Shown one piece after another: positions 15,398-28,864 of a stretch of DNA of 40,252 nucleotides. The DNA comes from a virus. The stretch covers positions 1 through 40,252 of IMG/VR virus record IMGVR_UViG_3300046710_000196; one strand, 5' to 3'. Both the position numbers and the translations under genes were made by a program. Position 1 is the stretch's first letter. The number at the start of each line of letters is the position of its first letter. The notes beneath the pieces were generated by a model, which was given only the letters and a program-made list of their open reading frames with translations, was not told the origin of the DNA and did no database searches.

Positions 15398-15405
15398 ACG
15401 CCCTT

Positions 15406-15434: not shown

Positions 15435-15453
15435 GCAACCGAAAGGCGAGGGA

Positions 15454-15609
15454 ATGATGGGTATTTTGCGCTGGCTGATGATCGCCTTGCTGGAGCTGGC
15501 CCTGCCCAGCCGGAAGTGGATCCCGGTGGTGATGGATGGCGAGGTTCGGGTGCGGATCACGCCGGCCGGCCGGGAAGCGCTGGAAGAAGCTCGGCAGGCT
15601 GAACGATGA
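15454..15609 (+). CDS. Small hypothetical protein (51 aa)
   Basis: Translated by hand: MMGILRWLMIALLELALPSRKWIPVVMDGEVRVRITPAGREALEEARQAER. An RBS-like aaaggcgaggga lies upstream. It has an ATGA overlap with the next ORF. Confidence 0.45.
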   Translation: MMGILRWLMIALLELALPSRKWIPVVMDGEVRVRITPAGREALEEARQAER

Positions 15610-15842
15610 AATGGACCACCCATTTTGAAATGGTCCCTATCCCGGTTCCGCCGGAGGCCCGTTTCAGACTCCTGGATGCCCAGCGCATGCTGGCGGAGAT
15701 GATGCGGGTAGAGGCGATCCGGCTCGGCTGGCTGCCGCCGGACCCGGTCCCGGCGGCGCCGGTAACGGCGGTGATAGTCGAACCGGAAGAAACAGAGGCC
15801 GAACTTTTGGCCATGGCAACCATGGCGACCATCGAAGTATAA
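15606..15842 (+). CDS. Hypothetical protein (78 aa)
   Basis: ORF in the plus-strand operon, translationally coupled to the upstream ORF. Confidence 0.5.
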   Translation: MKWTTHFEMVPIPVPPEARFRLLDAQRMLAEMMRVEAIRLGWLPPDPVPAAPVTAVIVEPEETEAELLAMATMATIEV

Positions 15843-15858
15843 GTTGGCGGAGGGAAAC

Positions 15859-15942
15859 ATGTTTTTATCTATCATCTTTGGATTGATCCTTGTCATCCCG
15901 GCCCTCTATTCGACGGGGCGGGACATTCAGAACGATCGCTGA
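15859..15942 (+). CDS. Possible 27-aa membrane peptide
   Basis: The peptide is MFLSIIFGLILVIPALYSTGRDIQNDR, with RBS ggaggga upstream. Very short, so weakly supported. Confidence 0.3.
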   Translation: MFLSIIFGLILVIPALYSTGRDIQNDR

Positions 15943-15947
15943 TCCCG

Positions 15948-17021
15948 ATGGATTTGCCTGAAACAATAGACTTGTCGGAGCCGATGGAACTGGCTACGGT
16001 CGACCGTCCGGAAGGACCGGTTGAAGATTGGGCGCAGGCCTTCGAAGCCTGGCTGGGCGGGATGGCCGTGAATACACAGACGGCCTATAAAGCGGCCTGG
16101 CGGGCGCTGCTGGCCCAATGCCGCCTGAAGCCATGGCAGATCGGGCGGGGCGACGTGGCCCGCTGGGTGGAGTCTTTGCGCCAGAAAGGCCTGGCGGAGA
16201 AAACGATCAACATGCGGGTGGCCGGGATCTCTTCTTTCTTCCGGTATGCCGGAAACGATTTTACTGTTACTCGCAATGGGCGAGAGGAGCCGCTGTTCGC
16301 GGGCCTCAACCCGGCCGGGGCGCGGACGCTGCGGAATAAAGCCGCAGCTTACAAGCGCAGCGGCTTCCTCTCGCCCGAGGAGTCCAGGCTGCTGCTGACG
16401 GTGGTCTCCATGCGGACCGGGATCCAGGCCAAACGAGACTACGCCCTGTTCCTGACCTACCTGATGACGGGCCGACGCAACAGCGAGGTGCGGCAACTGA
16501 AATGGGGCGACCTGGAAACAGCAATGGATGGGAAGGCCTACTACACCTGGTCCGGGAAGGGCCAGACGGACGTGAAGCACGAGCTGCCGGCGCCCTGCCT
16601 GGAAGCGATCCGGGCCTGGCTGGTTGCGGACGGACGGCTGAGGTCGATCCAGCCTGGCGACACCATATTTACGGCCACAAACGACCATGCCAGCCGGCTG
16701 CCGGGCGGAAAAACATGGGCTCCCGGGGCGCCATTGAGCTCGAAGCAGGTGGGCAAGCTGCTCCGGTACTATGCAGCGCTGGGCGGGATCGAAGGCCACA
16801 TCCACGTGCACATGCTCCGCCACTCCGCCGCCATGCTGCGCAAAGCCGTCGGGGATGACGTTGAAGCGATCAGCTCGCAGCTGGTGCATTCGAGCCTGGC
16901 AGTGACGCAAATTTACCTCCATAGTCTGGAAGGCCGGGGCGATGAGAGCTGGGAAAAGGTGGCGGCCTTGCTGGGTGTGCCAATCAAGAATAACAAGATC
17001 CGGAAGAAATCCAAAGAATAG
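15948..17021 (+). CDS. Tyrosine recombinase (phage integrase / Xer-like family)
   Basis: It has an N-terminal SAM-like domain. Catalytic signatures are TGRRNSEV, HMLRHSAA and LVHSSLAVTQIYLH (R..HxxR..H..Y). Confidence 0.85.
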   Translation: MDLPETIDLSEPMELATVDRPEGPVEDWAQAFEAWLGGMAVNTQTAYKAAWRALLAQCRLKPWQIGRGDVARWVESLRQKGLAEKTINMRVAGISSFFRYAGNDFTVTRNGREEPLFAGLNPAGARTLRNKAAAYKRSGFLSPEESRLLLTVVSMRTGIQAKRDYALFLTYLMTGRRNSEVRQLKWGDLETAMDGKAYYTWSGKGQTDVKHELPAPCLEAIRAWLVADGRLRSIQPGDTIFTATNDHASRLPGGKTWAPGAPLSSKQVGKLLRYYAALGGIEGHIHVHMLRHSAAMLRKAVGDDVEAISSQLVHSSLAVTQIYLHSLEGRGDESWEKVAALLGVPIKNNKIRKKSKE

Positions 17022-17033
17022 AGAGGCAAAAGG

Positions 17034-17408
17034 ATGCAAATAGACCTGGTATTCATCATTGTTTTGCTGATTTTGGCGCTGTTCGGGGTGGGCTACAACT
17101 CCCTGGTGGGTTATTTGGAACGGAGCCGGCTGAGCCAGGCGTACACGGCATACCTGGTGGTGCTGGGGGTGCTGGTGACGTTGGGCGGAGCGGCATTCCT
17201 GATCGGCCCGCTGCCGGCGCTGGTGGTGTTGGCGTGCTTTGCGGTCAGCGGGCTGCCGATGGTGGTGGGATCCAGCCTGCGGTCAGCCTTGGAAATGCGC
17301 CGGGATCACAAGCTGGCGCGGCAGATGGCGAAGGAGGTAATCGATGGCGAAACCCATCCCGGGCGGGTACCTATGGCGGCAAACACTTACGAAGGCGAGG
17401 AACGCTGA
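17034..17408 (+). CDS. Membrane protein (about 3 TM helices)
   Basis: Hydrophobic segments include LVFIIVLLILALFGVGY, AYLVVLGVLVTLGGAAFLIG and LVVLACFAVSGLPMVVG. Confidence 0.55.
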   Translation: MQIDLVFIIVLLILALFGVGYNSLVGYLERSRLSQAYTAYLVVLGVLVTLGGAAFLIGPLPALVVLACFAVSGLPMVVGSSLRSALEMRRDHKLARQMAKEVIDGETHPGRVPMAANTYEGEER

Positions 17409-17565
17409 CCGGGCGGTCAGGGAAGCGCTGCGCCGGCTGGCAGAGGATGAGCAGCTGCGGCCCGGCCAGGCGATTCTACTGGTTAAGGCTGCGAACGCGC
17501 TCATGGAGAATCTTGAAGCGCTGGACGAGCTGTCGCAAATTTTAGACCATCAGAAAGGAGATTGA
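17344..17565 (+). CDS. Hypothetical protein (73 aa; start uncertain)
   Basis: The ORF overlaps the previous gene by 65 nt. No better in-frame start was seen. Confidence 0.4.
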   Translation: MAKPIPGGYLWRQTLTKARNADRAVREALRRLAEDEQLRPGQAILLVKAANALMENLEALDELSQILDHQKGD

Positions 17566-17566
17566 G

Positions 17567-18049
17567 ATGAACGGTTTTGTAAGTGAAGGCGTGAGTTTAA
17601 ATACTTTGACGATCGATGATGATGATCCATCCGAGGGTATCCGCTCGATAAGTTACTCCAAATTGTTCACCCTGGGCGGTTACGAGAACGAAAAGATCGA
17701 CGTGACGATCCAATTGGCGCCCGGGGAGGACCCGGACCAGGCGGCGGACCGGGCCAAGGCCTGGGTGGAGCGGATCCATGGAGAGGCGGTAAACCTGCAG
17801 GATTCGATCCACGAGCTGCGGCGCAAGAATTCAGAGCTCGAATTTAATACGGACCGGCTGTGCGAATTCCGCAACAAGCTCCTGAAGGAGTGCAAACAGA
17901 TCAGCGCCATCCGGGTGGCCAACGGAATTCCTCCGGTGGACCTGAGTGAGCTCGGATATTATCCCGAAGACAAGCCGAAAGTAGAGTCGGAGCCCTCGCC
18001 GGAAGACGATCTGGAAGACGATCACAACCGGGATGATGTTCCATTTTAG
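17567..18049 (+). CDS. Hypothetical acidic protein (160 aa)
   Basis: RBS aaaggag lies upstream. Codon usage is protein-like and the C-terminus is acidic. Confidence 0.6.
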   Translation: MNGFVSEGVSLNTLTIDDDDPSEGIRSISYSKLFTLGGYENEKIDVTIQLAPGEDPDQAADRAKAWVERIHGEAVNLQDSIHELRRKNSELEFNTDRLCEFRNKLLKECKQISAIRVANGIPPVDLSELGYYPEDKPKVESEPSPEDDLEDDHNRDDVPF

Positions 18050-18057
18050 GAGCCGAC

Positions 18058-18288
18058 ATGGAAGAGCAAGCGATTTATCAGGCGGGCGAATTCGATCTGG
18101 CGGATGTATTTGACCTGGTACAGGCCGCGGAGATCAACCTGGCGTTTGCCAAACGTCACCACGAGGGTCAGAAATATGGGATGGCCTATAAGGAGCTGTG
18201 CCAGGCGGCGGATTATCTGCGGGGTGGTTTGCAGGCGCTGGAGAAGCTCTTGATTCCACCCGAGGCCGGCTCGCCGGCGGAAAAATGA
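18058..18288 (+). CDS. Hypothetical protein (76 aa)
   Basis: RBS ggag lies upstream. The protein looks helical. Confidence 0.55.
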   Translation: MEEQAIYQAGEFDLADVFDLVQAAEINLAFAKRHHEGQKYGMAYKELCQAADYLRGGLQALEKLLIPPEAGSPAEK

Positions 18289-18294
18289 TTGCAT

Positions 18295-18930
18295 GGGGCG
18301 CTGGAATAGCAGCGGCTTCCGCATTCCTCCTGGCCGCATCGGATGTTCGAGGCATCTGAGCCCCGCTCACACCCGGCATTTTGCGAGGGTTGGCGTTTCA
18401 GAGAATGTCTAAGAACGCTGGTGAGGTCGCCCACTCGTTGAGGTCTGAGGCTGTGCGGATGTCAGGCGATTAGAAAAACAGGCCACTCGAACGCCGGACG
18501 GACAAGGCGTGACAGCTCGGAGAGACGGCAGCACTTTTACAACAGCATAATCTGGCGGCGGCGTGGACAGTGACACGCAGGATTTCGACCGGGAATACAG
18601 GGAGACCTGAGCCTCGGCGCAATAACGCAACCCAGGCGACGTGGCGATAGGTAGAGATGCCTATCCCGTAAAGAGTGGTTGCAATCCGGCATAAGCCTAC
18701 CCCGTTGTAACCGGAATATCGGATCTGGCGAAAAGCCAGAAAGCGAACCCGGAGATCCGACTCGGGGCCGCCAGTTTGCACCAGCCTATGCGCCGAACCG
18801 TGATCGTGTAATTAAGGACAACCTTTGTGCTGATCACCCAAAAGGTCTTACCCTCGGTGACCCACCCGGCAGACAATCGAAAAGAGTCTGACGGGGCGCT
18901 CGGGCTGGTTACTTCTCGAAAGAGCGTCGA
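18295..18930 (+). ncRNA. Candidate large structured non-coding RNA or leader (family unknown)
   Basis: This is the largest ORF-free interval in the genome; all six frames give only junk ORFs. Many local helices and one 8-bp long-range helix were found by hand, listed in the findings. Several contain G-T pairs that work only on the plus strand. Confidence 0.4.
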
Positions 18931-18940
18931 TGGAGGTTTT

Positions 18941-19159
18941 ATGCTGGTCCAGGTAGTGAATGATTTTTTGGCGGTAGAGCTGCCGGGCGACCGGAGGGTG
19001 GTCGATCTCCGGGCCTATCCGGTCCTGGTGGCCGGCCAAAAGATGGACGCCGCGGTTGAATTTTTCAGGACTGAATTGGGTTGGATTGTCGAAGACCTGC
19101 GGCGGATCGAGACCGAGACGCCGGGCGAAATGGTTGATCTGGAATGGTTTCAGAAGTAA
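18941..19159 (+). CDS. Hypothetical protein (72 aa)
   Basis: RBS ggagg lies 4 nt upstream of ATG 18941. I prefer this start over the ORF-track start 18827. Confidence 0.55.
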   Translation: MLVQVVNDFLAVELPGDRRVVDLRAYPVLVAGQKMDAAVEFFRTELGWIVEDLRRIETETPGEMVDLEWFQK

Positions 19160-19169
19160 GGAGAAAGAA

Positions 19170-20030
19170 ATGAAAATCAAATGCGAATACATCGTACCGA
19201 ACCCGCAGCAGCCGCGGGTGGATTTTAACCAGGAGGATCTGGAAACGCTGGCGCAATCTATCGAGGAAAACGGCTTGATCCAGCCGGTGGTGGTGGAACA
19301 GGCCGGAACGAAATTTATCCTGATCGACGGCGAGCGCAGATGGCGGGCGCACCTGCTGCTGGGACTGCCCGAGATCGAAGCCGTGATCCGGCCCAGCTCC
19401 AATGGATCGGGCAGTCGAGAGCGCTTGTTCCTGGCGCTGGCGGCCAACCTGCAGCGGACCGACCTGCGGCCCATCGAAGAAGCCGAGGCATATTCCACCC
19501 TGCGCAACCAGCTGGGAATGAGTATAACCGAGATCACCCAACGCGTCGGGCGGACCTCTACACACGTATACAGCCGGATCAAGCTGTTGGATTTCCCGGC
19601 TGAGGTCCAGTCATACTTCAACAGCGGGCGCCTGCCGCTGGACGAACGGGTGTTCAACTCCCTGCGGAAATTGGAGCTCGAGGACCAGGTCCGGATCGCC
19701 CGGGCGGCGGTCTTACGCCAGCTGACGGTGCATGGGATCTGTTCTATTTGCACGCGCATTCTCAACGGGTACGCCTACGACACCACGAAGAAAACCCCGG
19801 CCATGGAAGGCGGGCGGGCGCATACCTACAAGACGCATACGCCAACAGACGTCAAGGATGCGATGCTGGTGGTCGAGCAGCACGCCGGCGTGGTTGCCTG
19901 GGAGCGGATTGCAGCGGCAGCTCGGGAAACGTGCCGGGAGGACTGCGTTCTATTCGAAGATGCCTCGCCGAAAATGTGTGCGAACTGCCCGGCGAAGGAT
20001 TTGATCAGAAGGATCGAAAAACAGGAGTAA
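19170..20030 (+). CDS. ParB-family protein with a C-terminal Cys cluster
   Basis: RBS aaggag precedes ATG 19170. ParB N-terminal motifs are IVPNPQQPRVDF and LIDGERRWRA (arginine patch). The HTH is MSITEITQRVGRTSTHVYSRIKLL. The C-terminus carries CSIC, CREDC and CANC. Confidence 0.8.
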   Translation: MKIKCEYIVPNPQQPRVDFNQEDLETLAQSIEENGLIQPVVVEQAGTKFILIDGERRWRAHLLLGLPEIEAVIRPSSNGSGSRERLFLALAANLQRTDLRPIEEAEAYSTLRNQLGMSITEITQRVGRTSTHVYSRIKLLDFPAEVQSYFNSGRLPLDERVFNSLRKLELEDQVRIARAAVLRQLTVHGICSICTRILNGYAYDTTKKTPAMEGGRAHTYKTHTPTDVKDAMLVVEQHAGVVAWERIAAAARETCREDCVLFEDASPKMCANCPAKDLIRRIEKQE

Positions 20031-20034
20031 CACT

Positions 20035-21249
20035 ATGAATATTTTGTACGTTCCCCTCGATAAAATTGTAGCCAACCCTTTCCAGGTCCGCCATGAAGAT
20101 CCGCAGCATGTCAAGAACCTGGCGATCTCGATTGCAGCCAATGGTCTGCTCCAAATCCCAACCGCCAGGGCTGAACTGGCCGGGAAGCATTGCTACCAAC
20201 TGGCCTTTGGCCATTCCCGGCTGGCAGCCTTCAAATGGATTCGGGATGCCAAGCCTCTTAGCATTTCCGCATTAAGAGCTTCTACGGATGGCTCATGCGA
20301 TTGGACCACCATGCCGCTTAACATCGTAGAGCTTACCGACCAGCAGATGTTCGAGGCAGTCGTGGCTGAAAACATGGCCCGCAAGGACCTGGACCCCATC
20401 GAGCAGGCTATGGCCATGGTGGTTTACCGGGATAAATTCGGTAAAACGTCCGTGGAAATCGGGACGCTCTTCGGTCTGAGCGATTCGGCGGTGCGCAATA
20501 AGATGCGGCTGCTCAAGCTGCCCGAAAACCTGCAGGTCCTGTTATCGCACGGCGAGCTCCCCGAAGGAGCCGGCCGGGCCCTGGTAAACCTCTTCGAACT
20601 GAGCGAGGCACAGCGCACGGCAGCGGAGGAGCAGGAGGATCTGTGCCCGTCTGTGATCATCGAGGCGGCGCTGTCGGGAGCGCAGCCGGAGGCGATCACG
20701 GGCATGATCAACAAGCTGCTCGTGCGATTGATCCAGAAACCAGATAGCACGGTATGGAGCGACACAGAAGCCGGCGCTTATATCGGCTCCGCGACACGGA
20801 CCGCAGTTCTGGCTCCCGAGCCGGCGCTTATATCGGCTCCGGCGCCGATGCCTGCCGAACAAGAAATGGAAACGACGCCGGCTCCCATCCCCATCCCACC
20901 GCCGGCCAGTTGGGGGCCGATGGTGGAAACTGCGGTCCAGGCCCCCAGGCCGGCTCCGGCGGCGATCCCTGCGCCACCCGCGCCCGCCACCCCACCCGCG
21001 CCGACCTATTTCAGCACGGAAATTGCTCCGGCTCCAATGCTGGATTGGGCCCATTCCACGATCACGCTGACCCTGACCTACTGGCCGGAGGACGGAAACC
21101 CCAACGGGCGGACGGTTATGATCGGCGGCCGGCTGAATCAGTTAGTCCCGGTCATGCGCATGAGCCGCGAAAAGATGCTGCAGCTCCCGATTCAGCTCAG
21201 CTCATTAATAGACGAGCTGCAGCTCTGGACCAAAGAAGGTGAGAAATGA
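20035..21249 (+). CDS. Second ParB-like protein with a Pro/Ala-rich linker
   Basis: Motifs are IVANPFQVRHEDP, FGHSRLAAF (a variant arginine patch) and the HTH KTSVEIGTLFGLSDSAVRNKMRLLKL. A long P/A-rich segment and a C-terminal domain follow. Confidence 0.7.
   Translation: MNILYVPLDKIVANPFQVRHEDPQHVKNLAISIAANGLLQIPTARAELAGKHCYQLAFGHSRLAAFKWIRDAKPLSISALRASTDGSCDWTTMPLNIVELTDQQMFEAVVAENMARKDLDPIEQAMAMVVYRDKFGKTSVEIGTLFGLSDSAVRNKMRLLKLPENLQVLLSHGELPEGAGRALVNLFELSEAQRTAAEEQEDLCPSVIIEAALSGAQPEAITGMINKLLVRLIQKPDSTVWSDTEAGAYIGSATRTAVLAPEPALISAPAPMPAEQEMETTPAPIPIPPPASWGPMVETAVQAPRPAPAAIPAPPAPATPPAPTYFSTEIAPAPMLDWAHSTITLTLTYWPEDGNPNGRTVMIGGRLNQLVPVMRMSREKMLQLPIQLSSLIDELQLWTKEGEK
20769..20841 (+). repeat. 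Two exact 23-bp direct repeats, 50 bp apart, inside the ParB-like gene
   Basis: agccggcgcttatatcggctccg occurs at 20769-20791 and 20819-20841. Each has AGCCG/CGGCT arms around an AT core. The two copies are read in different reading frames. Confidence 0.9.
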
Positions 21250-21674
21250 ACTATATCGTCTCGATCGAAGGCCAAAGCATCCCGCTGCCCGAAGAGATCG
21301 GGTCCAGCGATGACGCTGTCAAACGTGCCCTGGCGCCTTACTATCCCGAGGCCGCCAATGCCATGCTTACCCGGGTAACCCAGGGCGACACCACCACCAT
21401 CACGGTGATCAAAAAAGCCGGCACAAAAGGCCGTGGACTTGCAGCCCTAATCGCCTGCCCGGGCGGGAAGAACCCGGCCATGACGCTGTACGAGGAGATC
21501 AATGCCCTGGATGAACTCGCCCGGATGGACCCCCTGACCCTGCTGGAGATGGATGCCCGCATCGAAGAGGCTATCACAGCGGGAGGGCAACAGGCCGAAG
21601 CGGTGGCTTTTGCGGCGAAACGCCTGATCCGGTCGGCGGCCCAACCTGCGCCGGTCATCATTTTGGGGTTCTAA
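21246..21674 (+). CDS. Ubiquitin-like (prokaryotic Ub / PRTRC protein C-like) domain fused to an 80-aa C-terminal extension
   Basis: The N-terminal 62 aa, MNYIVSIEGQSIPLPEEIGSSDDAVKRALAPYYPEAANAMLTRVTQGDTTTITVIKKAGTKG, fit my recollection of the PRTRC-C pattern (..YYPE..A......GTKG). I could not verify this against a profile. It has an ATGA overlap with the upstream gene. Confidence 0.55.
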   Translation: MNYIVSIEGQSIPLPEEIGSSDDAVKRALAPYYPEAANAMLTRVTQGDTTTITVIKKAGTKGRGLAALIACPGGKNPAMTLYEEINALDELARMDPLTLLEMDARIEEAITAGGQQAEAVAFAAKRLIRSAAQPAPVIILGF

Positions 21675-22645
21675 TGCTCGACTGCCTGCCAGCGCTGGCT
21701 GCCGGTCCGACATTCAAGGAGGTCACACTCTTCTTGACCGCGCGCCGGCAGCCGAAGCTGGAGGATATGGTCGAGAGCCTGGATCTGCTGCGCAAACGCA
21801 CCCGCTTTGCGGTGATCCTCCAGGCGCTCAACCCGGAAAAATTCAGAGAGGTATGCGCCGGCCGATATGAGCTGGTGGTCGGAGATGTCAGCGAAGATCC
21901 GCTGATCGAGGCGGCGGTGGGGGAGATCAGTGATATTGCGCCCCTTGACCTGGAAGAAACCTTCATGTGCCTCGAAGACGGGTATGAGTACATTGATTAC
22001 CTCTACCCGGAGCACCTGGGCTACCCCATAGGCTGGGATGAATGGGAAGAACTGCACGATAACCCGAATGATTGGACTGAAACCATGGCGCTGTATGTGT
22101 TCGTCACCGCTCTGCGCCTGGGTGAAACGGAAGTTCTCGGCTCCTCCTCCGAACATTATGGCTGGGATCTGGAGGTCGAAGATTTGGAAGCGGGGATCCC
22201 AGAAGCCAATTGGGACCGTTTGTTTATCCTGCTGGACCAGCGCCAGATGAGCTGTTTCAAGAACGCCCTCGACGTGTGCATATATGATACCGGGAATCCG
22301 TATTTCGACTACAACCCTTATGATGAAGAGAGATGCCCCGACCTGCCGGGCATTACAGTGGAAGGGGTCCGCGCGCTGGAGAAAGCCTGGCAGGAAGCCC
22401 AACCCATCCGGCTCGATCACGAAACGGCTGCCGAGCAGTTTGCCCACGATCCTACGCTGGCGAAGGTGCTTTTGATGCTCTGGGCGGAGAGCGCAGACAA
22501 GCCTGAGCCGCGGCGGCCTCAAACCCTGGCCGAGATATGGGCGGATGAGCAGCCGGAACGGATCATCGATCCGTTTTACGGTCCGCTGGATGGGTGCGAA
22601 CAGGAAGTTCGCGAGGATGAAGAAGAACCCCTGGAGGAAGCATGA
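21674..22645 (+). CDS. Acidic Trp-rich hypothetical protein (323 aa), cassette component of unknown function
   Basis: It is translationally coupled on both sides. No motif was recognised. Confidence 0.6.
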   Translation: MLDCLPALAAGPTFKEVTLFLTARRQPKLEDMVESLDLLRKRTRFAVILQALNPEKFREVCAGRYELVVGDVSEDPLIEAAVGEISDIAPLDLEETFMCLEDGYEYIDYLYPEHLGYPIGWDEWEELHDNPNDWTETMALYVFVTALRLGETEVLGSSSEHYGWDLEVEDLEAGIPEANWDRLFILLDQRQMSCFKNALDVCIYDTGNPYFDYNPYDEERCPDLPGITVEGVRALEKAWQEAQPIRLDHETAAEQFAHDPTLAKVLLMLWAESADKPEPRRPQTLAEIWADEQPERIIDPFYGPLDGCEQEVREDEEEPLEEA

Positions 22646-23337
22646 ACAACACTGTTGATCTGCAAACCCGATTCCTGGCCCTGGCGGCGCTGGAGGACCC
22701 GGCGATTGAAGCCCAGGGCGTGCTTTACTTTTTGGAAGGGCATTATCTGTTCCGCTATCGGGAGAATAAGACCGTCAAGACCAAGTTCGTCACGTCTGCA
22801 GACGTGGCGGCGGCTTTTACCCAGCAGGATCTGGATACCGGCTGGCAGCCGGCCGGTATTGTGCGCCAGGGTCAAAGAGCCAGGGGACAATTCTTCGTAT
22901 ACAGCGCCCCGGCTCAGAGGGTGGAGATCCGCCTGGCGCAGAATGAGGCGCCGGTCGTGGTCCCCATCCCGCGCACGGTCCTTTTGGGAATCGGAGGCGG
23001 CTATCGTCTATGGGCCCTGCGCAGCAAGTATTTTTCCCCCGATGAGCGCGCTTACCTGGCGCCCTTCCCCAATATCAACCCCGGCGGCTCTATCTGTTGG
23101 GGTCAGAACACGCCCCCGCCGGCGGCGGTGGAAAAAGCAAGGGAGGTCTGGGAACTGTTTTTCGAGACGCCCTTCAACCAGGATCTGTCGGCGGGGAAGT
23201 CGGTCGCCCATCCCGAGGATGTACGCCTGGCCTTGCGCGAGCTGGCCGAAAAGAAAGCCCGCTCCTTTCCTATCGCAGGCCTGGTTGGGGAGCGATTCGG
23301 AACAATCGGCCAGTTGATCGAGCAGGCTTTGAGCTAG
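22642..23337 (+). CDS. E2-like (UBC-fold) protein
   Basis: The motif PFPNINPGGSICWGQN resembles the UBC active-site motif HPN(I/V)..G.IC. The candidate catalytic Cys is codon 152 (nt 23095-23097). Confidence 0.65.
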   Translation: MNNTVDLQTRFLALAALEDPAIEAQGVLYFLEGHYLFRYRENKTVKTKFVTSADVAAAFTQQDLDTGWQPAGIVRQGQRARGQFFVYSAPAQRVEIRLAQNEAPVVVPIPRTVLLGIGGGYRLWALRSKYFSPDERAYLAPFPNINPGGSICWGQNTPPPAAVEKAREVWELFFETPFNQDLSAGKSVAHPEDVRLALRELAEKKARSFPIAGLVGERFGTIGQLIEQALS

Positions 23338-23339
23338 TT

Positions 23340-23951
23340 ATGTTTGTCAATCACATTGTTGCCAATAATCCTTATCTGCCCAGGATGGGCCCTTTCCTGT
23401 ATACATATATCCTGGCTGCTAATGGAATTTTCGTCAGGGCCCGGCGTCCGGAGTTAGCGGCCCTGATCTGGGTGGCCAGCGTCCGGGAGCCGGTGCGCGG
23501 CCTGTATGAAGTACATCCGTATGTCGGTATGGACTGCCGGGTTCCTGTGCTCCAGGTGGCACGGATGTTCGAGATGGCCTACCGGGCGGACGGGAAAGAG
23601 ATCCTATTTTACCTGTCTGCCAATCCCTGGCGGATCCAGGTCCCAGAACAGGTCCAGCGCGGCGCCTCGGTCCACCCGGTGGATCCATATGCCGGCGGGG
23701 CCAACACGATCATCGAGGTCCACAGCCACCATGGGATGAAAGCATTTTTCTCGGAGGAGGATGACCGTGAGGAGCAGACCGGCTTTCGGATCTATGCCGT
23801 GCTGGGGGATTTATACAACCGGCCGGCGATCCGAGTGCGGGTCGGGATCTACGGCCATTTCTGGGAGATCCCGGCCGACTGGGTTTTTGAACTGCCGCAA
23901 GGCGTTAAAGATGGGTTATATGAGGGTATCGAATATGAGCACACCCGTTGA
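23340..23951 (+). CDS. JAB/MPN (JAMM) metallopeptidase
   Basis: EVHSHHGMKAFFSEEDD matches HxHx7Sx2D exactly. I prefer start ATG 23340, 3 nt after the upstream stop, over the ORF-track start 23097. Confidence 0.75.
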   Translation: MFVNHIVANNPYLPRMGPFLYTYILAANGIFVRARRPELAALIWVASVREPVRGLYEVHPYVGMDCRVPVLQVARMFEMAYRADGKEILFYLSANPWRIQVPEQVQRGASVHPVDPYAGGANTIIEVHSHHGMKAFFSEEDDREEQTGFRIYAVLGDLYNRPAIRVRVGIYGHFWEIPADWVFELPQGVKDGLYEGIEYEHTR

Positions 23952-24774
23952 ATTAAACCTGGATTTTGTGAACGCAGCCCGGCTGCTATTGCCGGCATAC
24001 GATTCGGTCACCCTGGCCCTGGTGGGCTGCGGCGGGACCGGTTCCTGGCTGGCGCCCTCGCTAGCCCGGATTGCCCGCCTGCTGGCAGAAAAATTCCACA
24101 AGGAAGTTGCTTTATATTTCATCGATCCCGACCGGGTAGAGGCGAAAAACGTTTACCGCCAAAACTTCTGCGAGGCTGAGGTTGGACGTTTCAAGGCGGA
24201 CGCTTTAGCTTTTCGCTATGGCCTGGCCTGGGGGGTTGAAATATCGGCGCCTATCCAGCCGTTCGAGCGCACCATTTTTAATGGTTCGGTGAGGGATGAC
24301 GCTCTGAAGGTCGTGGTGGGCTGCGTGGATAATGCTGCGGCGCGCCGGAATATTGAAGCGGCTGTCACCGGCGCCGGCCAGAAACAGGCGCGCTACTGGT
24401 GGTTGGACTGCGGGAACCACCAATCCGCCGGGCAGATCGTCCTCGGATGCGGCGTCAAGAGACCCCAAAAACCGTTCGAGCTGGCCGGTTATTGCTCCTG
24501 GCTGCCCCTCCCGACCATCCATCACCCCGAGCTCCTGCGGGTGGACCAGGGCGAGAAGTCTATCGATCAGGAGCTTTCTTGCGCCGACCTGGCCTTGCAG
24601 GACAGCCAGGGCCTGGCGATCAACCAGCGCATTGCCGCTGAGGCATCCGACTACCTGGTGCGCCTGCTTATCACAAAGGACCTACAGAAATATGCCACCT
24701 ACATCGACCTGGCGTCCGGATCGGCGAGATCCAAATACATCACGCCTGCCATAATGGAGAATCGAAATGAGTGA
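23935..24774 (+). CDS. E1-like / ThiF-family adenylyltransferase
   Basis: The Rossmann motif is LVGCGGTGSW. ThiF-type motifs are IDPDRVEAKNVYRQNF and VVGCVDNAAARRNI. I chose start 23935 (RBS gaggg); the alternatives are 23911 and 23920. Confidence 0.75.
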   Translation: MSTPVELNLDFVNAARLLLPAYDSVTLALVGCGGTGSWLAPSLARIARLLAEKFHKEVALYFIDPDRVEAKNVYRQNFCEAEVGRFKADALAFRYGLAWGVEISAPIQPFERTIFNGSVRDDALKVVVGCVDNAAARRNIEAAVTGAGQKQARYWWLDCGNHQSAGQIVLGCGVKRPQKPFELAGYCSWLPLPTIHHPELLRVDQGEKSIDQELSCADLALQDSQGLAINQRIAAEASDYLVRLLITKDLQKYATYIDLASGSARSKYITPAIMENRNE

Positions 24775-25066
24775 AGACTATGAATATTACAAATATATTT
24801 CAAAACCGGTCGGGTTCCTGCCGATGGAAGAGCAGTGGGAAGCGGCGCAGAAGGCGATCAAGGAGCTGGCAGAATTTCGGGAAAGGGCCATGGCGGCAAT
24901 AGAGTTCCACCCCCGCGCGTGGAAGTTGATGCTTAAGCGAAAAAACTTTGTTGAGGATGTTTATCGTCTCATCCGAGCGAATGAAAGAAAATTACACAAT
25001 TGGAACGAAGGCGATGAAATACGTTTTCTCGAAGCTATCTACCCTTCAGCAGAGGAGAAGCGCTAA
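24767..25066 (+). CDS. Hypothetical protein (99 aa)
   Basis: The ORF overlaps the E1-like gene end by 8 nt. Confidence 0.55.
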   Translation: MSEDYEYYKYISKPVGFLPMEEQWEAAQKAIKELAEFRERAMAAIEFHPRAWKLMLKRKNFVEDVYRLIRANERKLHNWNEGDEIRFLEAIYPSAEEKR

Positions 25067-26068
25067 ATGGCTAATCCGATCCTGACAGCAACGCTACTGC
25101 GGACACTCAAGGGCTCGCCGCTGAGCGTATTGATGGCGCTGGCGCTGGTGCGGCAGCCGGTGGAGGCGCAGTGGCTGGAGCGCACGACAGGATACTCTGA
25201 CAAGAGCGTATCAAATGCGCTGCTGTTCCTGGAGGAGAACGGCTGGGCGATCCGAAACGGGCGGTATGGCTGGATTATGGCAGGGGAGTCGGTGCAGCTG
25301 CCGTTGATGGTTCCCGAGATAGAGAGCCAGTCTGCGGCGGATGAAGCGGAAGAGCCGGCGGAAATCGGAGAAGAATTGTCCGAGAAACGTTTCCACGGAA
25401 ACGAACAAACGTTCTATACTGGAGAGGAAACAGGAGAAAGCATATCCGATAAGGGGGACTCGGAGAAATTCCGACTCGGAAATTCTCCGAGTCCCGACTC
25501 TAGTAGTAGTAGTAGATCTATTCTTCTAGATTCTAGTAAGGATCTACTACTAGCTAGAAAGGGGGAGTCGGAGAAATTCCGGGTCGATGTTCTGGAAGAG
25601 CTGGATAGATGGGGTATTCGTGAGCCGGTTCGAAGCCGGATAGCCAAAAAGCCAGATATAGCCGTTGAAAGTATTCGATACCATTGTTCAACGAGCGAAA
25701 CCTCTGGTCAAGCGATCTATCGTATTGAGCATGATTGGAAAATTAAGGCGGCTCCGCCTGGTTTGAGATTGCCAGAGACCGTTTCCGTGGAAACGGTCGA
25801 GGAGGAACCGGGCGACGAGATTGCGGAGGGATGGTGGCAGTCCGTGATGGCCGGTCTGCGGGAAATGATGCCGCGGGCGCAGTTCGAAACCTGGGTCCAG
25901 CCGGCCGGGCGGGCCTGGCAAGAGGGTGAGGCGCTGGTGATATTGGCGGTCAACGATGGATTGAAGCGTTGTATCGAGAAATTTACCGATCCCGAGGCGC
26001 TGAATCTGCTGGTCGAGCAGGTCAGCGGTGGAGTGGTCAGACGATTGGATATAGTTATTCCAGAATGA
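25067..26068 (+). CDS. Replication initiator-like protein (N-terminal winged-helix, C-terminal DnaA-N-like domain)
   Basis: The N-terminus LRTLKGSPLSVLMALALVRQPVEAQWLERTTGYSDKSVSNALLFLEENGW looks wHTH-like. The C-terminus WWQSVMAGLREMMPRAQFETWVQPAG...ALVILAVNDGLKRCIEKF resembles DnaA domain I. The gene contains the iteron/AT-rich block. Confidence 0.6.
   Translation: MANPILTATLLRTLKGSPLSVLMALALVRQPVEAQWLERTTGYSDKSVSNALLFLEENGWAIRNGRYGWIMAGESVQLPLMVPEIESQSAADEAEEPAEIGEELSEKRFHGNEQTFYTGEETGESISDKGDSEKFRLGNSPSPDSSSSSRSILLDSSKDLLLARKGESEKFRVDVLEELDRWGIREPVRSRIAKKPDIAVESIRYHCSTSETSGQAIYRIEHDWKIKAAPPGLRLPETVSVETVEEEPGDEIAEGWWQSVMAGLREMMPRAQFETWVQPAGRAWQEGEALVILAVNDGLKRCIEKFTDPEALNLLVEQVSGGVVRRLDIVIPE
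25453..25586. repeat. Candidate origin of replication: iterons flanking an AT-rich palindrome
   Basis: Direct 26-mers GGGGGACTCGGAGAAATTCCGACTCG (25453-78) and GGGGGAGTCGGAGAAATTCCGGGTCG (25561-86) match at 23 of 26 positions. An inverted copy lies at 25478-95. The central ~60 bp are AT-rich, with the inverted repeat TAGTAGTAGATC/GATCTACTACTA. Confidence 0.5.
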
Positions 26069-26340
26069 AAGTAGACAAAATGAGCCTGGACGAATTAAAA
26101 CAAATATGTGAAAAGGCGATAAATTATCGTGGCTTTATAAACTTGCCAGGGAAAGCCAGAATAACACTCAACCTTCCCGAGAGCAAAAACGCCCCCAGGC
26201 GCCGCCGTATCTTTGGTAAGTCGGGCCCATTCGGGAATGTCGTTGCCTGGGGATTTGATGGATACGATACGGTTATTTTCGACGCACAAGAGGTGCTGGA
26301 TTTCATAATTGGCGTTCAGACACTGGAAGGAGAGGCATAA
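26065..26340 (+). CDS. Hypothetical protein (91 aa)
   Basis: It has an ATGA overlap with the initiator stop. The gene is AT-rich. Confidence 0.55.
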   Translation: MKVDKMSLDELKQICEKAINYRGFINLPGKARITLNLPESKNAPRRRRIFGKSGPFGNVVAWGFDGYDTVIFDAQEVLDFIIGVQTLEGEA

Positions 26341-26565
26341 ATGAATGACGAATTCAAGTCGCTATTTCCTGGAGAAAAGGAAAATATAAATAAAGTAATA
26401 GACATTGCTGAAATTTATGGTTATGGCAATTTGATTGCGCATCTCAGGCGAGCATGGGCCATAAAATTGATAAAGTCTAATCCGCTGCTGGATTATAAAA
26501 GCGCGTTAGAGTGCACAAACTCAGACGGTTATCCTCGGGAAGCCATCTCACCAGAGGCGCAATGA
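26341..26565 (+). CDS. Hypothetical protein (74 aa)
   Basis: The ORF abuts the previous stop (TAAATG). Confidence 0.55.
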   Translation: MNDEFKSLFPGEKENINKVIDIAEIYGYGNLIAHLRRAWAIKLIKSNPLLDYKSALECTNSDGYPREAISPEAQ

Positions 26566-26807
26566 CAAGATTCGCTGAAGAAGCCAATTACTGGGACACC
26601 ACTGTTTCTCCTGCAAAAAGTATGGGCGAGATCCAGGAAATATTGGAGGAATTCGGCGTGCGGGACATCCTGATCACCCAGGGCCAGGCTAGAGGTGGCT
26701 CATTCCGGGTCCCTGCCTCTCACAGCCAGCGAGGTAGATGTCAGCCGGCTGGTCAACGAGGCGGAAATATTCCCGGCTTTGCCCGAAGGGACGGTCGATG
26801 CCATTGA
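26562..26807 (+). CDS. Hypothetical protein; 3' half may be out of frame
   Basis: It starts at ATG 26562 (ATGA overlap). The first ~45 aa look protein-like (MTRFAEEANYWDTTVSPAKSMGEIQEILEEFGVRDILITQGQ). The remainder is Arg/Gly/Pro-rich, while the +1 frame reads more naturally. Confidence 0.4.
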   Translation: MTRFAEEANYWDTTVSPAKSMGEIQEILEEFGVRDILITQGQARGGSFRVPASHSQRGRCQPAGQRGGNIPGFARRDGRCH

Positions 26808-27022
26808 CGCCGCGTGAGCTCCAGGTGCTTCAGGCGTTGGCGGATGGGAAATCACCGAAGGAAATCTGTTTTATGTTTTGTATTCACCGGAGTACGGTGT
26901 TTTTTCACATTCGGCGCATTAAGGAAAAACTCAACGCCGTTTCACGCGAGGAAGCGGTTGCTCATGGTTGTTTTATTGGTTTGGTCAAACCGATAATGGA
27001 GCACTTCCCAAGCCCCAATTAA
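26798..27022 (+). CDS. LuxR/GerE-type HTH transcription regulator
   Basis: The signature is MPLTPRELQVLQALADGKSPKEICFMFCIHRSTVFFHIRRIKEKL. I prefer start 26798 over the ORF-track start 26738. Confidence 0.75.
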   Translation: MPLTPRELQVLQALADGKSPKEICFMFCIHRSTVFFHIRRIKEKLNAVSREEAVAHGCFIGLVKPIMEHFPSPN

Positions 27023-27054
27023 GTCATTCGTACAGTATCGAATAATCCTTTAAA

Positions 27055-27091
27055 CGGCTACTCTATAAAAGGAGTAGCCGCATTTTGTTTT
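27055..27091 (+). terminator. Rho-independent terminator ending the early operon
   Basis: The stem cggctactct/ggagtagccg (27055-64 / 27071-80) has a 6-nt loop and is followed by cattttgtttt. Confidence 0.8.
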
Positions 27092-27104
27092 ATAGGAGAC
27101 TGAA

Positions 27105-27449
27105 ATGGATTGGTCAGCATTTACCAAGGCAACCGTGGCGGGCATCCCGCTGTTGTTCGTCGTTCTCGGGCTGGTCGAGTGGCTCAAGAAATTCAACAAG
27201 CCGGACGGAACACCGAAGTTTGACGGTAACGTCATACTGCTCCTATCCCTCGGGCTGGGTTTATTGTTCGGCGGCGGGTACATGATCACCGTCACCAGGC
27301 CGCCAATATTGGACCTATGGGAGATTTACGTCTATTGGTTTGCGGTCGTCGTTTATGGTCTGGCCATGGGCCTGGTTGCATCCGGGCTATACGATGCCGT
27401 CAAAACGATGATCGAGAAGATTTTTACCAAAGCCAACCTGGACGGGTAG
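27105..27449 (+). CDS. Holin-like membrane protein (3 TM)
   Basis: RBS aggaga is present. Hydrophobic helices are VAGIPLLFVVLGLVEWL, VILLLSLGLGLLFGGGYMI and YWFAVVVYGLAMGLVASGLY. The function is inferred only. Confidence 0.4.
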   Translation: MDWSAFTKATVAGIPLLFVVLGLVEWLKKFNKPDGTPKFDGNVILLLSLGLGLLFGGGYMITVTRPPILDLWEIYVYWFAVVVYGLAMGLVASGLYDAVKTMIEKIFTKANLDG

Positions 27450-27452
27450 GCC

Positions 27453-27746
27453 ATGACCCCCGATACTATTGCATCGTTGATCAATCTGGGCAGCGCCGGC
27501 GTCGTCATCATTGTGGTGATCATCTTCCTGAATTTCATCACGAAAAGGGATGAGGAGTGGCGCTCTTTTTTTACACTCTTGAACGCCAACAGCAAGGACG
27601 ACATGCGGGCATTCGCCAATACGATGGATCGCCTGGTGACCAGGGTTGATAGCATCGGGACCGAGCTTGACAACCACGACGCACATGTGGATGAGCGAGT
27701 CAAGCTTATTACAGGCGCCGCCCGCACCCAACCAAGGACACGATAA
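27453..27746 (+). CDS. Membrane protein (1 N-terminal TM; holin/antiholin/spanin-like)
   Basis: It has the TM segment LINLGSAGVVIIVVIIFLNFI. The function is inferred only. Confidence 0.4.
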   Translation: MTPDTIASLINLGSAGVVIIVVIIFLNFITKRDEEWRSFFTLLNANSKDDMRAFANTMDRLVTRVDSIGTELDNHDAHVDERVKLITGAARTQPRTR

Positions 27747-27748
27747 GC

Positions 27749-28102
27749 ATGCCCACCGGCGCGCTCAAACCCTGCTTATATCCTGGCTGCACCACTCTCG
27801 TGCGACGTGGTCGCTGCGATATCCATCGCAATAAAGAGATCGATCGCCACAACAAGGACGCGGATCGCCTGCTCCATACCGCGCACTGGCATCGACTCAG
27901 GCGCATGCAGCTCGCCAGGCAGCCCTGGTGCGAAGAGTGCTTGAAGACTGACATCTATACGCCAGCCACCGACGTCGACCACAAGGAGCGGCACGAAGGC
28001 GACCCCGTTAAGTTCTTTGGCGGCGCGCTCCAGAGCCTGTGCCATTCTCATCACTCTGCCAAGACGGCGCGAGAAGTTTTTAGTCAGGGGATGGGTGGCT
28101 AA
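27749..28102 (+). CDS. HNH endonuclease (packaging-associated)
   Basis: The Cys/His pattern is CTTLVRRGRCDIH, HWHRLR, WCEECL, DVDHKERH and LCHSHH. It lies immediately upstream of terS/terL, as in HK97-like cos phages. Confidence 0.8.
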   Translation: MPTGALKPCLYPGCTTLVRRGRCDIHRNKEIDRHNKDADRLLHTAHWHRLRRMQLARQPWCEECLKTDIYTPATDVDHKERHEGDPVKFFGGALQSLCHSHHSAKTAREVFSQGMGG

Positions 28103-28186
28103 AATGTTTTGCGTTGGAGAGCGAACAGCGGGCGTGGCCAGCGATATAAAATTAATTTTCAATGTGGAGAATCCAGTTAACCCATT

Positions 28187-28864
28187 ATGCCAGCCAGAAA
28201 ACCAGCCGGACTGATCACCAGGGCCGAAACCAAGGCCAAAAAGGCAGCCAGAGTCGGGGGCGAAGCCGCTCTGAAGCCGCGCCGGTCGCTGCCGCTCAGT
28301 CCACCGGCGAGGCTGAAGGGGCACGAGGTGGCGGAGACCACCTGGCGGCGGATGATGCGCATGTACCGCGGTCTCGAAGCCGAGGTGGTGACCGGGATGG
28401 ACCTGGATCTCCTGGTGGACTACTGCATCCTGACCGAGCAGGTTGTGGAGATGGATCACCTGCGGAAGCGAGCAGCCGATGTTTATGCTGAGCTGGACCG
28501 CAAGCTGGGTGAGATCGGCGCCAGGCGGGCTGAGCTGCGCAAAGAGTTGACAATGCTGAAAGCGGAAACGGAGCAGGAGGTGCAGATCGAAGCACTGCAT
28601 GCCAGGATCGATAAACTAGATGATCAGTACCTGGATGTGATGCTCAAGATGGCGAGCGCCTTCGAAGGCATTGTGAAGTTGGATGGCCGCGTCGATCGCA
28701 AGCGGGACCTGGTATTCAAGTTCCGCCAGTCGCTGTACCTGACGCCCAGGGCCAGGGCGGGTGCGGCGCCGGCTCAGAAAGAAGAGCTGCCGCCTCCGGA
28801 CGATATGGAGCAGCTGCTGGACGATATCAACAATACTCTGAATGGTAAACAGGATGGCCAATGA
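28187..28864 (+). CDS. terS: Terminase small subunit (P27-like)
   Basis: It has a basic N-terminus (MPARKPAGLITRAETKAKKAARVGGE) and a coiled-coil middle. It lies directly upstream of terL with an ATGA overlap. Confidence 0.7.
   Translation: MPARKPAGLITRAETKAKKAARVGGEAALKPRRSLPLSPPARLKGHEVAETTWRRMMRMYRGLEAEVVTGMDLDLLVDYCILTEQVVEMDHLRKRAADVYAELDRKLGEIGARRAELRKELTMLKAETEQEVQIEALHARIDKLDDQYLDVMLKMASAFEGIVKLDGRVDRKRDLVFKFRQSLYLTPRARAGAAPAQKEELPPPDDMEQLLDDINNTLNGKQDGQ

Follow-up and report, generated by a model that had tools for sequence, protein, structure and literature searches.

Among the bacterial operons that combine a ubiquitin-like protein (Ubl) with E1-, E2- and JAB-type enzymes, the class designated 6d, or PRTRC (ParB-Related, ThiF-Related Cassette), has been known from computational analysis since 2006 (PMC1779556). 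A 2022 description listed families 6a to 6e as uncharacterised except for CBASS. Four of the five bacterial E1/E2/JAB classes of 2006 (6a, CBASS, Bil and Bub) now have a biochemical or anti-phage assignment; 6d/PRTRC, which is carried by plasmids, integrative and conjugative elements and phages, is the fifth class, without such an assignment. A first-pass annotation of the DNA studied here had said that PRTRC has no assigned function, in agreement with the literature searched, where no functional study was found. Here, we report a comparative analysis of a divergent cassette of this class in the genome of a temperate phage, positions 1-40,252 of the IMG/VR virus record IMGVR_UViG_3300046710_000196 (the window, 40,252 nt in all).

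The 6d operon, as described by Iyer, Burroughs and Aravind in 2006, encodes a small Ubl with a terminal glycine; an alpha-helical protein that diverges rapidly and has conserved charged residues; an E2 that has the cysteine and lacks the histidine of the HPN motif; a JAB extended by an additional N-terminal domain; and an E1 that stands alone and has no rhodanese domain (PMC1779556). The canonical PRTRC gene set is this same operon; on the Burkholderia aenigmatica plasmid NZ_CP091649, it is arranged as ParB-E-C-F-B-A-ThiF. Bil systems are host-encoded defences, often paired with CapH/CapP, with Ubls that contain one to three ubiquitin-like domains. In type I and type II BilABCD, the E2 may choose the targets directly, and in Bub (6E), a BubAB fusion precursor is cut by the JAB peptidase of the operon, BubCD, before activation (PMC11601596).

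In the cassette described here, all the parts, the catalytic residues and the gene order are conserved. We argue, with moderate confidence, that it forms a working Ubl-conjugation pathway of a divergent PRTRC/6d branch that lies within the early operon of the phage and serves the phage.

Results

Seven coupled genes of a divergent PRTRC/6d branch

The cassette consists of seven tightly coupled plus-strand genes (19170-24774), which encode two ParB proteins, a Ubl precursor (p3), an acidic protein (p4), and the E2-like, JAB and ThiF/E1-like enzymes (Table 1). The operon coupling that the first-pass annotation had described was reproduced in both gene calls and overlaps: ATGA overlaps at 21246 and 22642, a 1-nt overlap at 21674, a 17-nt overlap at 23935, and an 8-nt overlap at 24767, with a 4-nt gap between the two ParB genes. 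A single junction had to be corrected, namely, the gap between the E2 and JAB genes, given as 3 nt and measured as 2 nt, with the JAB gene starting at 23340 rather than 23341.

The proposed enzyme identities, including the reading of the E2 active site, are borne out by Pfam and NCBIfam matches far beyond chance, and the motifs quoted for ParB1, ParB2, p3, E2, JAB and ThiF were all located in the translations. The E2 gene product (22642..23337) is significantly similar to the E2 family Prok-E2_D (E 1.5e-20; 74.1 bits against a cut-off of 25), JAB to Prok-JAB (E 1.3e-6; 28.7 bits against a cut-off of 25), and the E1 to the ThiF family (E 4e-11). ParB_N (3e-21) and HTH_ParB (5.7e-13 and 8e-16) were found in both ParBs. 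The top NCBIfam models for the three enzymes are all PRTRC models, PRTRC_ThiF (4.2e-42), PRTRC_A (3.5e-14) and PRTRC_B (1.3e-12).

Membership was evaluated with the NCBIfam/TIGRFAM models TIGR03734-03742 at their curated cut-offs. ThiF reaches 144.2 bits against the 144.75 demanded by TIGR03736 (PRTRC_ThiF), covering positions 11-240 of the 245 in the model. The E2 scores 47.6 bits with TIGR03737 (PRTRC_B; cut-off 131.45), and thus is homologous to the curated family yet outside it; JAB scores 52.8 bits with TIGR03735 (PRTRC_A; cut-off 101.8), and p3 scores 13.8 bits with TIGR03738 (PRTRC_C; cut-off 45.95). Against the PRTRC ParB model (TIGR03734; cut-off 278.6), ParB1 attains 47.6 and ParB2 27 bits, and the generic model TIGR00180 fits both better. 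No protein encoded within 17000-27000 matched PRTRC_E (TIGR03741). The earlier statement that this gene set matches PRTRC is accordingly too strong, given that the scores fall below the curated cut-offs (for ThiF, by 0.5 bit), that PRTRC_E is missing, and that p4 is not detectably PRTRC_F. On profile scores and gene content, the cassette is a distinct, divergent branch of the PRTRC/6d class rather than a borderline member.

The resemblance to PRTRC extends to the order of the genes (ParB, Ubl in the place of C, a helical protein of about 300-380 aa, E2 as B, JAB as A, and ThiF), which corresponds position by position to the ParB-(E)-C-F-B-A-ThiF of the Burkholderia plasmid and of Ralstonia phage Dina, likewise on a mobile element; to a Ubl motif AG-x-KG followed by a removable extension; and to carriage by mobile elements, including phages. 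In contrast to PRTRC, the window has no E gene and an unrelated family in the F position, besides scores under the cut-offs; its Ubl is joined in one protein to a conserved domain of 80 aa that ends in Gly-Phe (GF); it encodes two ParBs under the PRTRC_parB score, of which ParB2 has a C-terminal domain of its own; and its closest plasmid relatives are cyanobacterial or from Chloroflexota and are not labelled PRTRC by the Prokaryotic Genome Annotation Pipeline (PGAP).

Compared with the 6d description, the window shares the Ubl with a conserved glycine (its beta-grasp fold coming from an AlphaFold2, or AF2, model), the N-terminal alpha+beta domain of JAB, the E1 without rhodanese, and an E2 that keeps the invariant Cys152 with FPN in place of HPN. 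It differs in that the E2 lacks the conserved downstream histidine, the glycine is internal since the Ubl is a fusion precursor, and the phage context and the coupling to ParB do not figure in that description. With Bil, the cassette has in common separate genes for Ubl, E2, JAB and E1, the lack of an E3 gene, and the expected thioester chemistry, whereas the Bil E1 is a multidomain protein, IAD-AAD-CYS (PMC11601596), against a single adenylation domain of 279 aa in the window, and no PADLOC model matched the window E2 or JAB. The fusion-then-trim logic of Bub is the one we propose for p3 and JAB; Bub, however, relies on oxyester chemistry (E1 Tyr, E2 Ser) without a catalytic cysteine and has a DUF6527 serine protease, whereas E2 Cys152 and E1 Cys216 of the window are invariant and DUF6527 had no match in the Pfam scan. 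Type II CBASS has a weakly similar E1-type adenylation domain and a JAB antagonist or processor (Cap3), but its Cap2 combines E2 and E1 in one protein and conjugates a CD-NTase, whereas the window has separate E2 and E1 proteins and a dedicated Ubl substrate; no CD-NTase or effector domain was found among the window genes scanned.

Table 1. Coordinates of the cassette, its domains and other features (positions refer to the window unless a related locus is named)
Feature	Position	Strand	Length or remark
ParB1	19170-20030	plus	286 aa
ParB2	20035-21249	plus	404 aa
ParB2 C-terminal domain	21043-21246	plus	~68 aa, conserved
p3 (Ubl precursor)	21246-21674	plus	142 aa
Ubl domain of p3	21246-21431	plus	residues 1-62; AF2 model, HMM, comparison
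C-terminal domain of p3	21432-21674	plus	residues 63-142; helical, ends in invariant Gly-Phe
p4 (acidic, all-helical)	21674-22645	plus	323 aa
E2-like (Prok-E2_D)	22642-23337	plus	231 aa
JAB/JAMM metallopeptidase	23340-23951	plus	203 aa
ThiF/E1-like	23935-24774	plus	279 aa
p8	24767-25066	plus	99 aa; joined to ThiF by 8-nt overlap
p9, putative replication or origin-binding protein	25067-26068	plus
LuxR/GerE regulator	26738-27022		E 3e-14; closes early block, directly before terminator-like hairpin
Strongest plus-strand terminator-like hairpin 3' of cassette	27055-27080	plus	10-bp stem, T-rich tail
Serine integrase (large)	10566-12080	minus
RNase_T exonuclease with BRCT domain	12930-13814	minus	beside repressor gene
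CI-like repressor gene (HTH_3)	13857-14348	minus
Candidate early rightward promoter	14327-14354	plus	TTGACA-16-TATAAT (12/12); consensus match
Tyrosine recombinase	15948-17021	plus	heads early plus-strand block
Separate Ubl gene, L022	238-444
Separate Ubl gene, L024	4089-4343
Separate Ubl gene, L025	3854-4063
Separate GF-ended gene, L022	801-1067		85-90 aa
Separate GF-ended gene, L024	4574-4846		85-90 aa
Separate GF-ended gene, L025	4304-4561		85-90 aa

Active sites of the three enzymes

The E2-like protein contains the motif PFPNINPGGSICWGQN, and Cys152 (nt 23095-23097) is its sole cysteine. The string FPNINPGGSIC (FPNxxxxGxIC) parallels the HPNxxxxGxIC of eukaryotic E2 enzymes, and Pro141, Asn144 (from FPN), Cys152 and Gly154 are invariant in a comparison of the phage clade with canonical PRTRC and a Bacillus phage. 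The single match to a ubiquitin-conjugating (UBC) enzyme in a PDB sequence search aligned at HPN..C and was non-significant (E 0.71). Residues 18-56 also matched designed propeller proteins ('Bagel') in PDB; as this segment is short, repeat-like and not part of the UBC core, these matches were judged spurious.

JAB has the motif HSHHGMKAFFSEED (HxHx7SxxD; residues 128-141, nt 23721-23762), an upstream Glu87 and an extra N-terminal domain, and the glutamate, the HxH and the S..D are invariant in the same comparison. We propose that it would trim the Ubl precursor and possibly act in deconjugation as well.

ThiF is a single adenylation domain with the P-loop GCGGTGS, DPDRVEAKNVYRQ, and DNAAAR; the P-loop, DxD, RQ, Lys, Arg, CVD..R, D158-G-N, GQ and Ser215-Cys216 are invariant, again across the clade, canonical PRTRC and the Bacillus phage. 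Its family profile matches active adenylation domains, namely, those of UBA6, UBA1, UBA3, UBA5, SAE2, ThiF, MccB, Cap2 and BubCD. Cys216 (nt 24580-24582) lies 58 residues after the Mg-binding Asp158, and the spacing is about the same in ThiF (Asp127/Cys184) and MoeB (Asp130/Cys187), which makes Cys216 a candidate for the E1 thioester cysteine.

The Ubl precursor and its probable mature end

The AF2 model of p3 (pLDDT 79) consists of a beta-beta-alpha-beta-beta arrangement over residues 2-55, a tail that leads to Gly62, and helices over residues 62-129. Foldseek returned no significant match for p3 (best small-domain UBL matches at E of at least 0.09); the best compact, non-significant ones were UBL1 of FAF1 (probability 0.97, TM 0.53) and the UBL of Dsk2 (0.87), and FERM F1 lobes and protein G/L-type domains were also among them. 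With TIGR03738, residues 22-62 align up to the very end of the model, which falls on Gly62 (13.8 bits, E 0.048), and in a search of 14 sequences, a hidden Markov model (HMM) of the p3 family detects PRTRC_C of Dina and of Burkholderia phage BgVeeders33 (E about 3e-4). Of the earlier beta-grasp assignment for 21246..21431, the part that stands is the minimal beta-grasp fold in the AF2 model, whereas the Foldseek matches are non-significant and the HMM links marginal.

Comparison of relatives points to the place where the Ubl would end. The motif KKAGTKG of p3 ends at Gly62 (nt 21429-21431), and Lys61 and Gly62 are invariant in 24 p3 homologues; beyond them come a linker that varies in length and a conserved domain with an invariant Gly-Phe at its end. 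PRTRC_C of the Burkholderia plasmid terminates in AGAKG-AHA, that is, KG plus a 3-residue tail, and PRTRC_C of Dina continues for about 60 residues beyond AVGRKG. More distant relatives from IMG/VR encode the two halves of p3 separately, one gene for the Ubl by itself and another for the GF-ended protein (Table 1); in one of these loci (L022), the 68-aa Ubl reads '...MPKG' and then stop, and its 88-aa partner '...VPVGF'.

A further architecture is found in the Bacillus jumbo phage vB_BceM_WH1 (L013), for which no paper was found in the literature searched. Its gp211 (1898-2797), annotated as 'virion structural protein', contains five tandem PRTRC_C-like Ubl units, each ending in QAGTKG, and is, to judge from these repeats, a poly-Ubl precursor; the same gene is present in phages Edson and KLEB27-3. 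It lies two genes 5' of the E2 (gp214); next come a protein of 460 aa that contains JAB (gp215), ThiF (gp216) and a NADAR protein (gp217). The occurrence of JAB follows the Ubl ends: the JAB gene is absent, with E2 and ThiF adjacent, from the two loci with a tailless Ubl (L022 and L025) and present where the Ubl has a tail (L024) or is a fusion (L023 and all close relatives). Because Lys61-Gly62 is invariant, the PRTRC_C model ends there, relatives have KG stops, tails or poly-Ubl repeats at this point, and JAB occurs with the tails, Gly62 of AGTKG is likely to be the mature C-terminus of the Ubl and the processing point. The earlier proposal that JAB would cut after GTKG thus gains strong comparative support from the Ubl ends and the JAB occurrence in relatives.

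As a separate observation, residues 3-115 of p3 match the PADLOC model C3a152 (E 1.8e-15), which is labelled 'Type III-C specific' and presumably represents a family from CRISPR type III neighbourhoods.

p4, a protein family in the position of PRTRC_F

By gene order, p4 sits at the position of PRTRC_F. It is strongly acidic (pI 4.1; 73 Asp and Glu against 25 Lys and Arg), all-alpha in the AF2 model (pTM 0.71), and carries the conserved motifs LYPxxCGYPMGWDEWEE and TGNPYFDYNPYDE. Neither Pfam, NCBIfam, PHROG nor PADLOC gave a match, and Foldseek searches against PDB and BFVD yielded no fold assignment (best E > 1). Derivation from PRTRC_F (TIGR03742) was considered and rejected: the NCBIfam search of p4 was empty at E up to 10, none of 66 diverse family members matched TIGR03742, an HMM search was also empty, and hhalign of the p4 family with three PRTRC_F proteins gave a probability of 0.1%. 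By these searches, p4 is a new family, comprising 157 clusters at 50% identity. It fits the alpha-helical protein of the 6d operon of Iyer et al. by verbal description only, homology not having been demonstrated.

Related loci in phages and plasmids

Related phage and prophage loci (L003-L012 and L017-L021), recovered with p3, p4 and E2 as probes, share 35-65% protein identity with the window. The order ParB2-p3-p4-E2-JAB-ThiF is kept in all of them as far as each contig extends; the six-gene core is syntenic in L003-L012, L019 and L021, and the L020 contig ends inside p4. In these loci, the cassette is always located in the replication/early module.

Outside this clade, a complete Ubl-p4-E2-JAB-ThiF variant is present on the conjugative plasmid pn3 of Nostoc sp. 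UHCC 0926 (L014), and a p4-E2-JAB-ThiF set lies at the very start of the record of a Candidatus Chlorohelix plasmid (L015), with the upstream genes outside the fetched region. Cyanobacterial plasmids and the Chlorohelix plasmid are the nearest plasmid relatives by ThiF (40-49% identical); by HMM, the Nostoc plasmid has recognisable members of the p3 and p4 families, and the Chlorohelix plasmid of the p4 family. The PGAP labels on these plasmids are 'ThiF family adenylyltransferase', 'Mov34/MPN/PAD-1' and 'hypothetical', never PRTRC. Related cassettes were also found in Bacillus jumbo phages, and related ThiF genes in Vibrio and Salmonella jumbo phages.

The novelty of a phage location that the first-pass annotation implied was overstated. 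RefSeq annotates PRTRC E-C-F-B-A-ThiF in Ralstonia phage Dina (NC_055026), the same genes are present, unannotated, in BgVeeders33, a 2026 paper reports PRTRC in a B. gladioli prophage (PMC13366799), and 16 phage records in INPHARED have a related ThiF. Phage-borne PRTRC is already on record, and the window cassette is of value as a lead, not as the first case. What is new is the divergent branch itself, in which the F position is taken by the new p4 family, the Ubl is fused to the C-terminal domain, E is lacking and ParB2 has a domain of its own; the standing of the cassette as a core module conserved in a clade of Anaerolineae phages; and, at the level of sequence comparison, the case for the Ubl processing site.

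The ParB proteins and the adjoining genes

ParB1 has a canonical ParB N-domain with GERRWRA at residue 54, a helix-turn-helix (HTH), and a Cys-rich tail (CSIC, CREDC, CANC); the Cys-rich region after the HTH resembles that of the Burkholderia PRTRC ParB. This protein is variable among relatives, adjoining the cassette only in L006, with a separated copy in L011. ParB2 consists of a divergent ParB N-domain in which GHSR (residue 59) replaces GERR, an HTH_ParB domain, a Pro/Ala-rich linker that differs widely in length and sequence among relatives, and a conserved C-terminal domain. Its gene lies directly 5' of the Ubl gene wherever that region is covered in the phage clade. On the Nostoc plasmid pn3 (4467-5111), the C-terminal domain of ParB2 occurs without the ParB N-domain and HTH, directly 5' of the Ubl, so that the conserved partner of the Ubl machinery may be this domain and not ParB itself. 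The suggestion that it is a fused PRTRC_E, which it resembles by eye, found no support (hhalign probability 0.1% against the N-domain of PRTRC_E). The linker also contains an exact 23-nt direct repeat (20769-20791 and 20819-20841).

The absence of ParA, which the first-pass annotation had remarked on, was confirmed: there is no Pfam match in the flanking genes scanned and no KGGxGK[ST] Walker motif in any frame. No convincing parS-like repeat arrays were seen near the ParB genes or the cassette.

On the 3' side, p8, without a tblastn match in any related locus, probably lies outside the system. A homologue of p9 adjoins the cassette in most related loci, usually 5' of ParB2. The p9 protein matches DnaA_N at 20.3 bits (cut-off 24.6), and its gene contains a perfect 16-nt inverted repeat pair (25388-25403 and 25780-25795, 376 nt apart) as well as a palindrome of 20 nt (25455-25495), the 28-nt unit of which occurs again 108 nt downstream (region 25451-25586). 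These repeats look iteron- or origin-like. The replication initiator that the first-pass annotation placed next to the cassette is putative, its label coming only from these repeats and the sub-threshold DnaA_N match.

The phage genome and its early transcription unit

An exact 127-bp direct terminal repeat (1-127 and 40126-40252) marks the window as a complete phage genome, about 40.1 kb in size and circularly closed. The gene set includes terminase, portal, protease, capsid, tape measure and tail protein genes together with serine and tyrosine recombinases; with the terminal repeat, the structural genes, the two recombinases and the CI-like repressor, the context of a complete temperate phage was corroborated. 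No DNA similarity of the window to known phages was found. Relatives of the phage are integrated in chromosomal contigs of two Anaerolineaceae metagenome-assembled genomes (MAGs), and a third lies within a Bellilinea MAG, so the host is most likely a member of Anaerolineae. The tyrosine recombinase, kept upstream of the cassette in L004, L008, L010 and L011, might act in dimer resolution and not be the integrase.

The candidate early promoter is the sole 12/12 sigma-70-type site within 13800-28900; it overlaps the 5' end of the divergent CI-like repressor gene and points away from it, giving a lambda-like immunity layout. This promoter probably drives a long plus-strand early unit that includes the cassette. 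No strong terminator was seen between it and 27055, and the hairpin that starts there is likely to be the end of the unit, so that promoter and hairpin together would place the cassette within one long early transcription unit.

Several other observations concern the remainder of the window. ARAGORN calls a tRNA-Val (CAC) at 15324-15397 on the minus strand, inside a 297-aa minus-strand open reading frame (ORF; 15003-15896), which Rfam does not report; the call may be false, or the site may be a tRNA fragment related to attP. The Rfam scan of the whole window, tRNA included, gave no match at the gathering threshold. Just 5' of the cassette block, there is an ORF-poor stretch of about 540 nt (18289-18826) with no Rfam match, no conservation in related loci and ordinary folding energy (z = -1.3).

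Discussion

We infer each chemical step of the pathway, the roles of Cys216 and p4, and the target, as follows. p3 would be made as a precursor in which the Ubl (residues 1-62) precedes the 80-aa helical domain, and the JAMM peptidase would cleave it after Lys61-Gly62, giving a Ubl with a C-terminal glycine and a free helical domain. The ThiF-type E1 would then adenylate Gly62, probably load the Ubl onto Cys216, and hand it to Cys152 of the E2, which would transfer it to a target lysine, either alone or with a specificity factor, which could be p4 or the freed helical domain; JAB may in addition remove the tag. The pathway would act during infection or induction, on the ParB/replication nucleoprotein complex of the phage or, as counter-defence, on host proteins. 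An early, phage-serving role is suggested by the synteny of the core within the replication module and its coupling to ParB, by its probable position 3' of a repressor-controlled promoter, and by related cassettes in jumbo phages together with the lack of a PADLOC defence match for E2 and JAB. By the same reasoning, we infer that the cassette is not a defence expressed by the lysogen for the host.

Several points weigh against this interpretation. The histidine downstream of the E2 cysteine, 'absolutely conserved' in 6d according to Iyer et al., varies across the clade, and where canonical PRTRC_B has the histidine of FTHP, the column reads N-Q/A/x in the window clade. The beta-grasp call for p3 derives from the AF2 model, non-significant Foldseek matches and marginal HMM links. 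The association of JAB with Ubl tails comes from just two JAB-less loci, and the Ubl ORF of one of these, L025, ends in KH and not KG. Linkage to ParB is not universal: in L022-L025, the Bacillus phages and the Nostoc plasmid, where the flanks are covered, there is no adjacent ParB N-domain. The promoter and the terminator were recognised solely as matches to a consensus, from which promoters in Chloroflexota may deviate. Finally, biochemistry on any PRTRC/6d system was not found in the literature searched.

The experimental record bears directly on the alternative that the cassette is a prophage-borne anti-phage defence or superinfection exclusion system akin to Bil, type II CBASS or 6A-MBL, by which the lysogen would tag a protein of an incoming phage or prime an effector. 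Every characterised bacterial E1/E2/JAB operon is an anti-phage defence (PMC11601596; PMC10557695), prophages often carry defence cargo, and ThiF of the window weakly matches the NCBIfam '6A-MBL anti-phage system' and PADLOC Cap2 'E1-E2' models. Nevertheless, PADLOC has no match for E2, JAB or p4, no effector, CD-NTase or regulator of the CapH/CapP/CapW type adjoins the cassette, and the cassette is a syntenic early/replication core in all related phages rather than variable cargo. Given also its translational coupling to the ParB genes, its location 3' of the presumed repressor-controlled early promoter, and the related cassettes in jumbo phages, we regard a defence function as unlikely. We give a little less credence still to a DNA partition or maintenance module, in which the ParBs would do the work, the Ubl enzymes would merely tune ParB, and the phage could persist as a plasmid-like episome. 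The literature label 'ParB/ThiF partitioning cassette' reflects this idea, which is repeated in PMC13366799, and the two ParB proteins with HTH domains, the ParB that precedes the cassette in canonical PRTRC also, the linked putative replication protein and a tyrosine recombinase potentially able to resolve dimers are all consistent with it. However, neither a ParA- or ParM-type NTPase (flanking-gene Pfam scans and a ParA motif search) nor a parS-like array near the cassette was found, relatives occur as integrated copies in chromosomal contigs of Anaerolineaceae, and a serine integrase is encoded by the phage. Moreover, the Ubl-p4-E2-E1 core occurs without ParB in L022-L025 and on plasmid pn3, as does the Ubl-E2-JAB-E1 set in Bacillus jumbo phages.

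It is also conceivable, although we consider it improbable, that no protein conjugation takes place and that the E1 adenylates its substrate for sulfur transfer, as with ThiS/MoaD, or for peptide modification, as with MccB, the E2-like protein being a non-catalytic scaffold. The E1 is indeed a single 279-aa adenylation domain like ThiF, MoeB and MccB, the Ubl ends in K-G rather than G-G, and the E2 has neither the classical HPN histidine nor the downstream histidine of 6d. Against this, Cys152 and Asn144 of the E2 are invariant within FPNxxxxGxIC, nearly identical to the eukaryotic E2 motif, conjugation systems are typified by a JAMM peptidase and by poly-Ubl or precursor architectures, and no rhodanese, cysteine desulfurase, or thiazole or molybdenum cofactor (MoCo) genes were present among the window genes scanned.

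Our preferred reading, a conjugation pathway that serves the phage, can be taken further, albeit tentatively: we think it possible, at well below even likelihood, that the phage encodes a complete Ubl cascade with new specificity factors, p4 and the GF-ended domain, that tags proteins early in infection for the benefit of the virus. Such tagging could disarm host immunity or regulate the ParB/replication complex of the phage.

The cassette is a compact, complete and deeply conserved version of 6d/PRTRC inside the early operon of a phage, and it offers testable handles. Processing after Lys61-Gly62 predicts a mono-Gly remnant on lysine after trypsin digestion, the candidate catalytic residues are named (Cys152 of E2, Cys216 of E1, His128 and His130 of JAB), and p4 and the GF-ended domain are two new candidate specificity components. 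If the pathway does serve the phage, PRTRC/6d would be the first case of a bacterial ubiquitination-type system acting on behalf of mobile elements and not against them, and ubiquitin-like tagging would be employed by both sides in the conflict between phages and their hosts.

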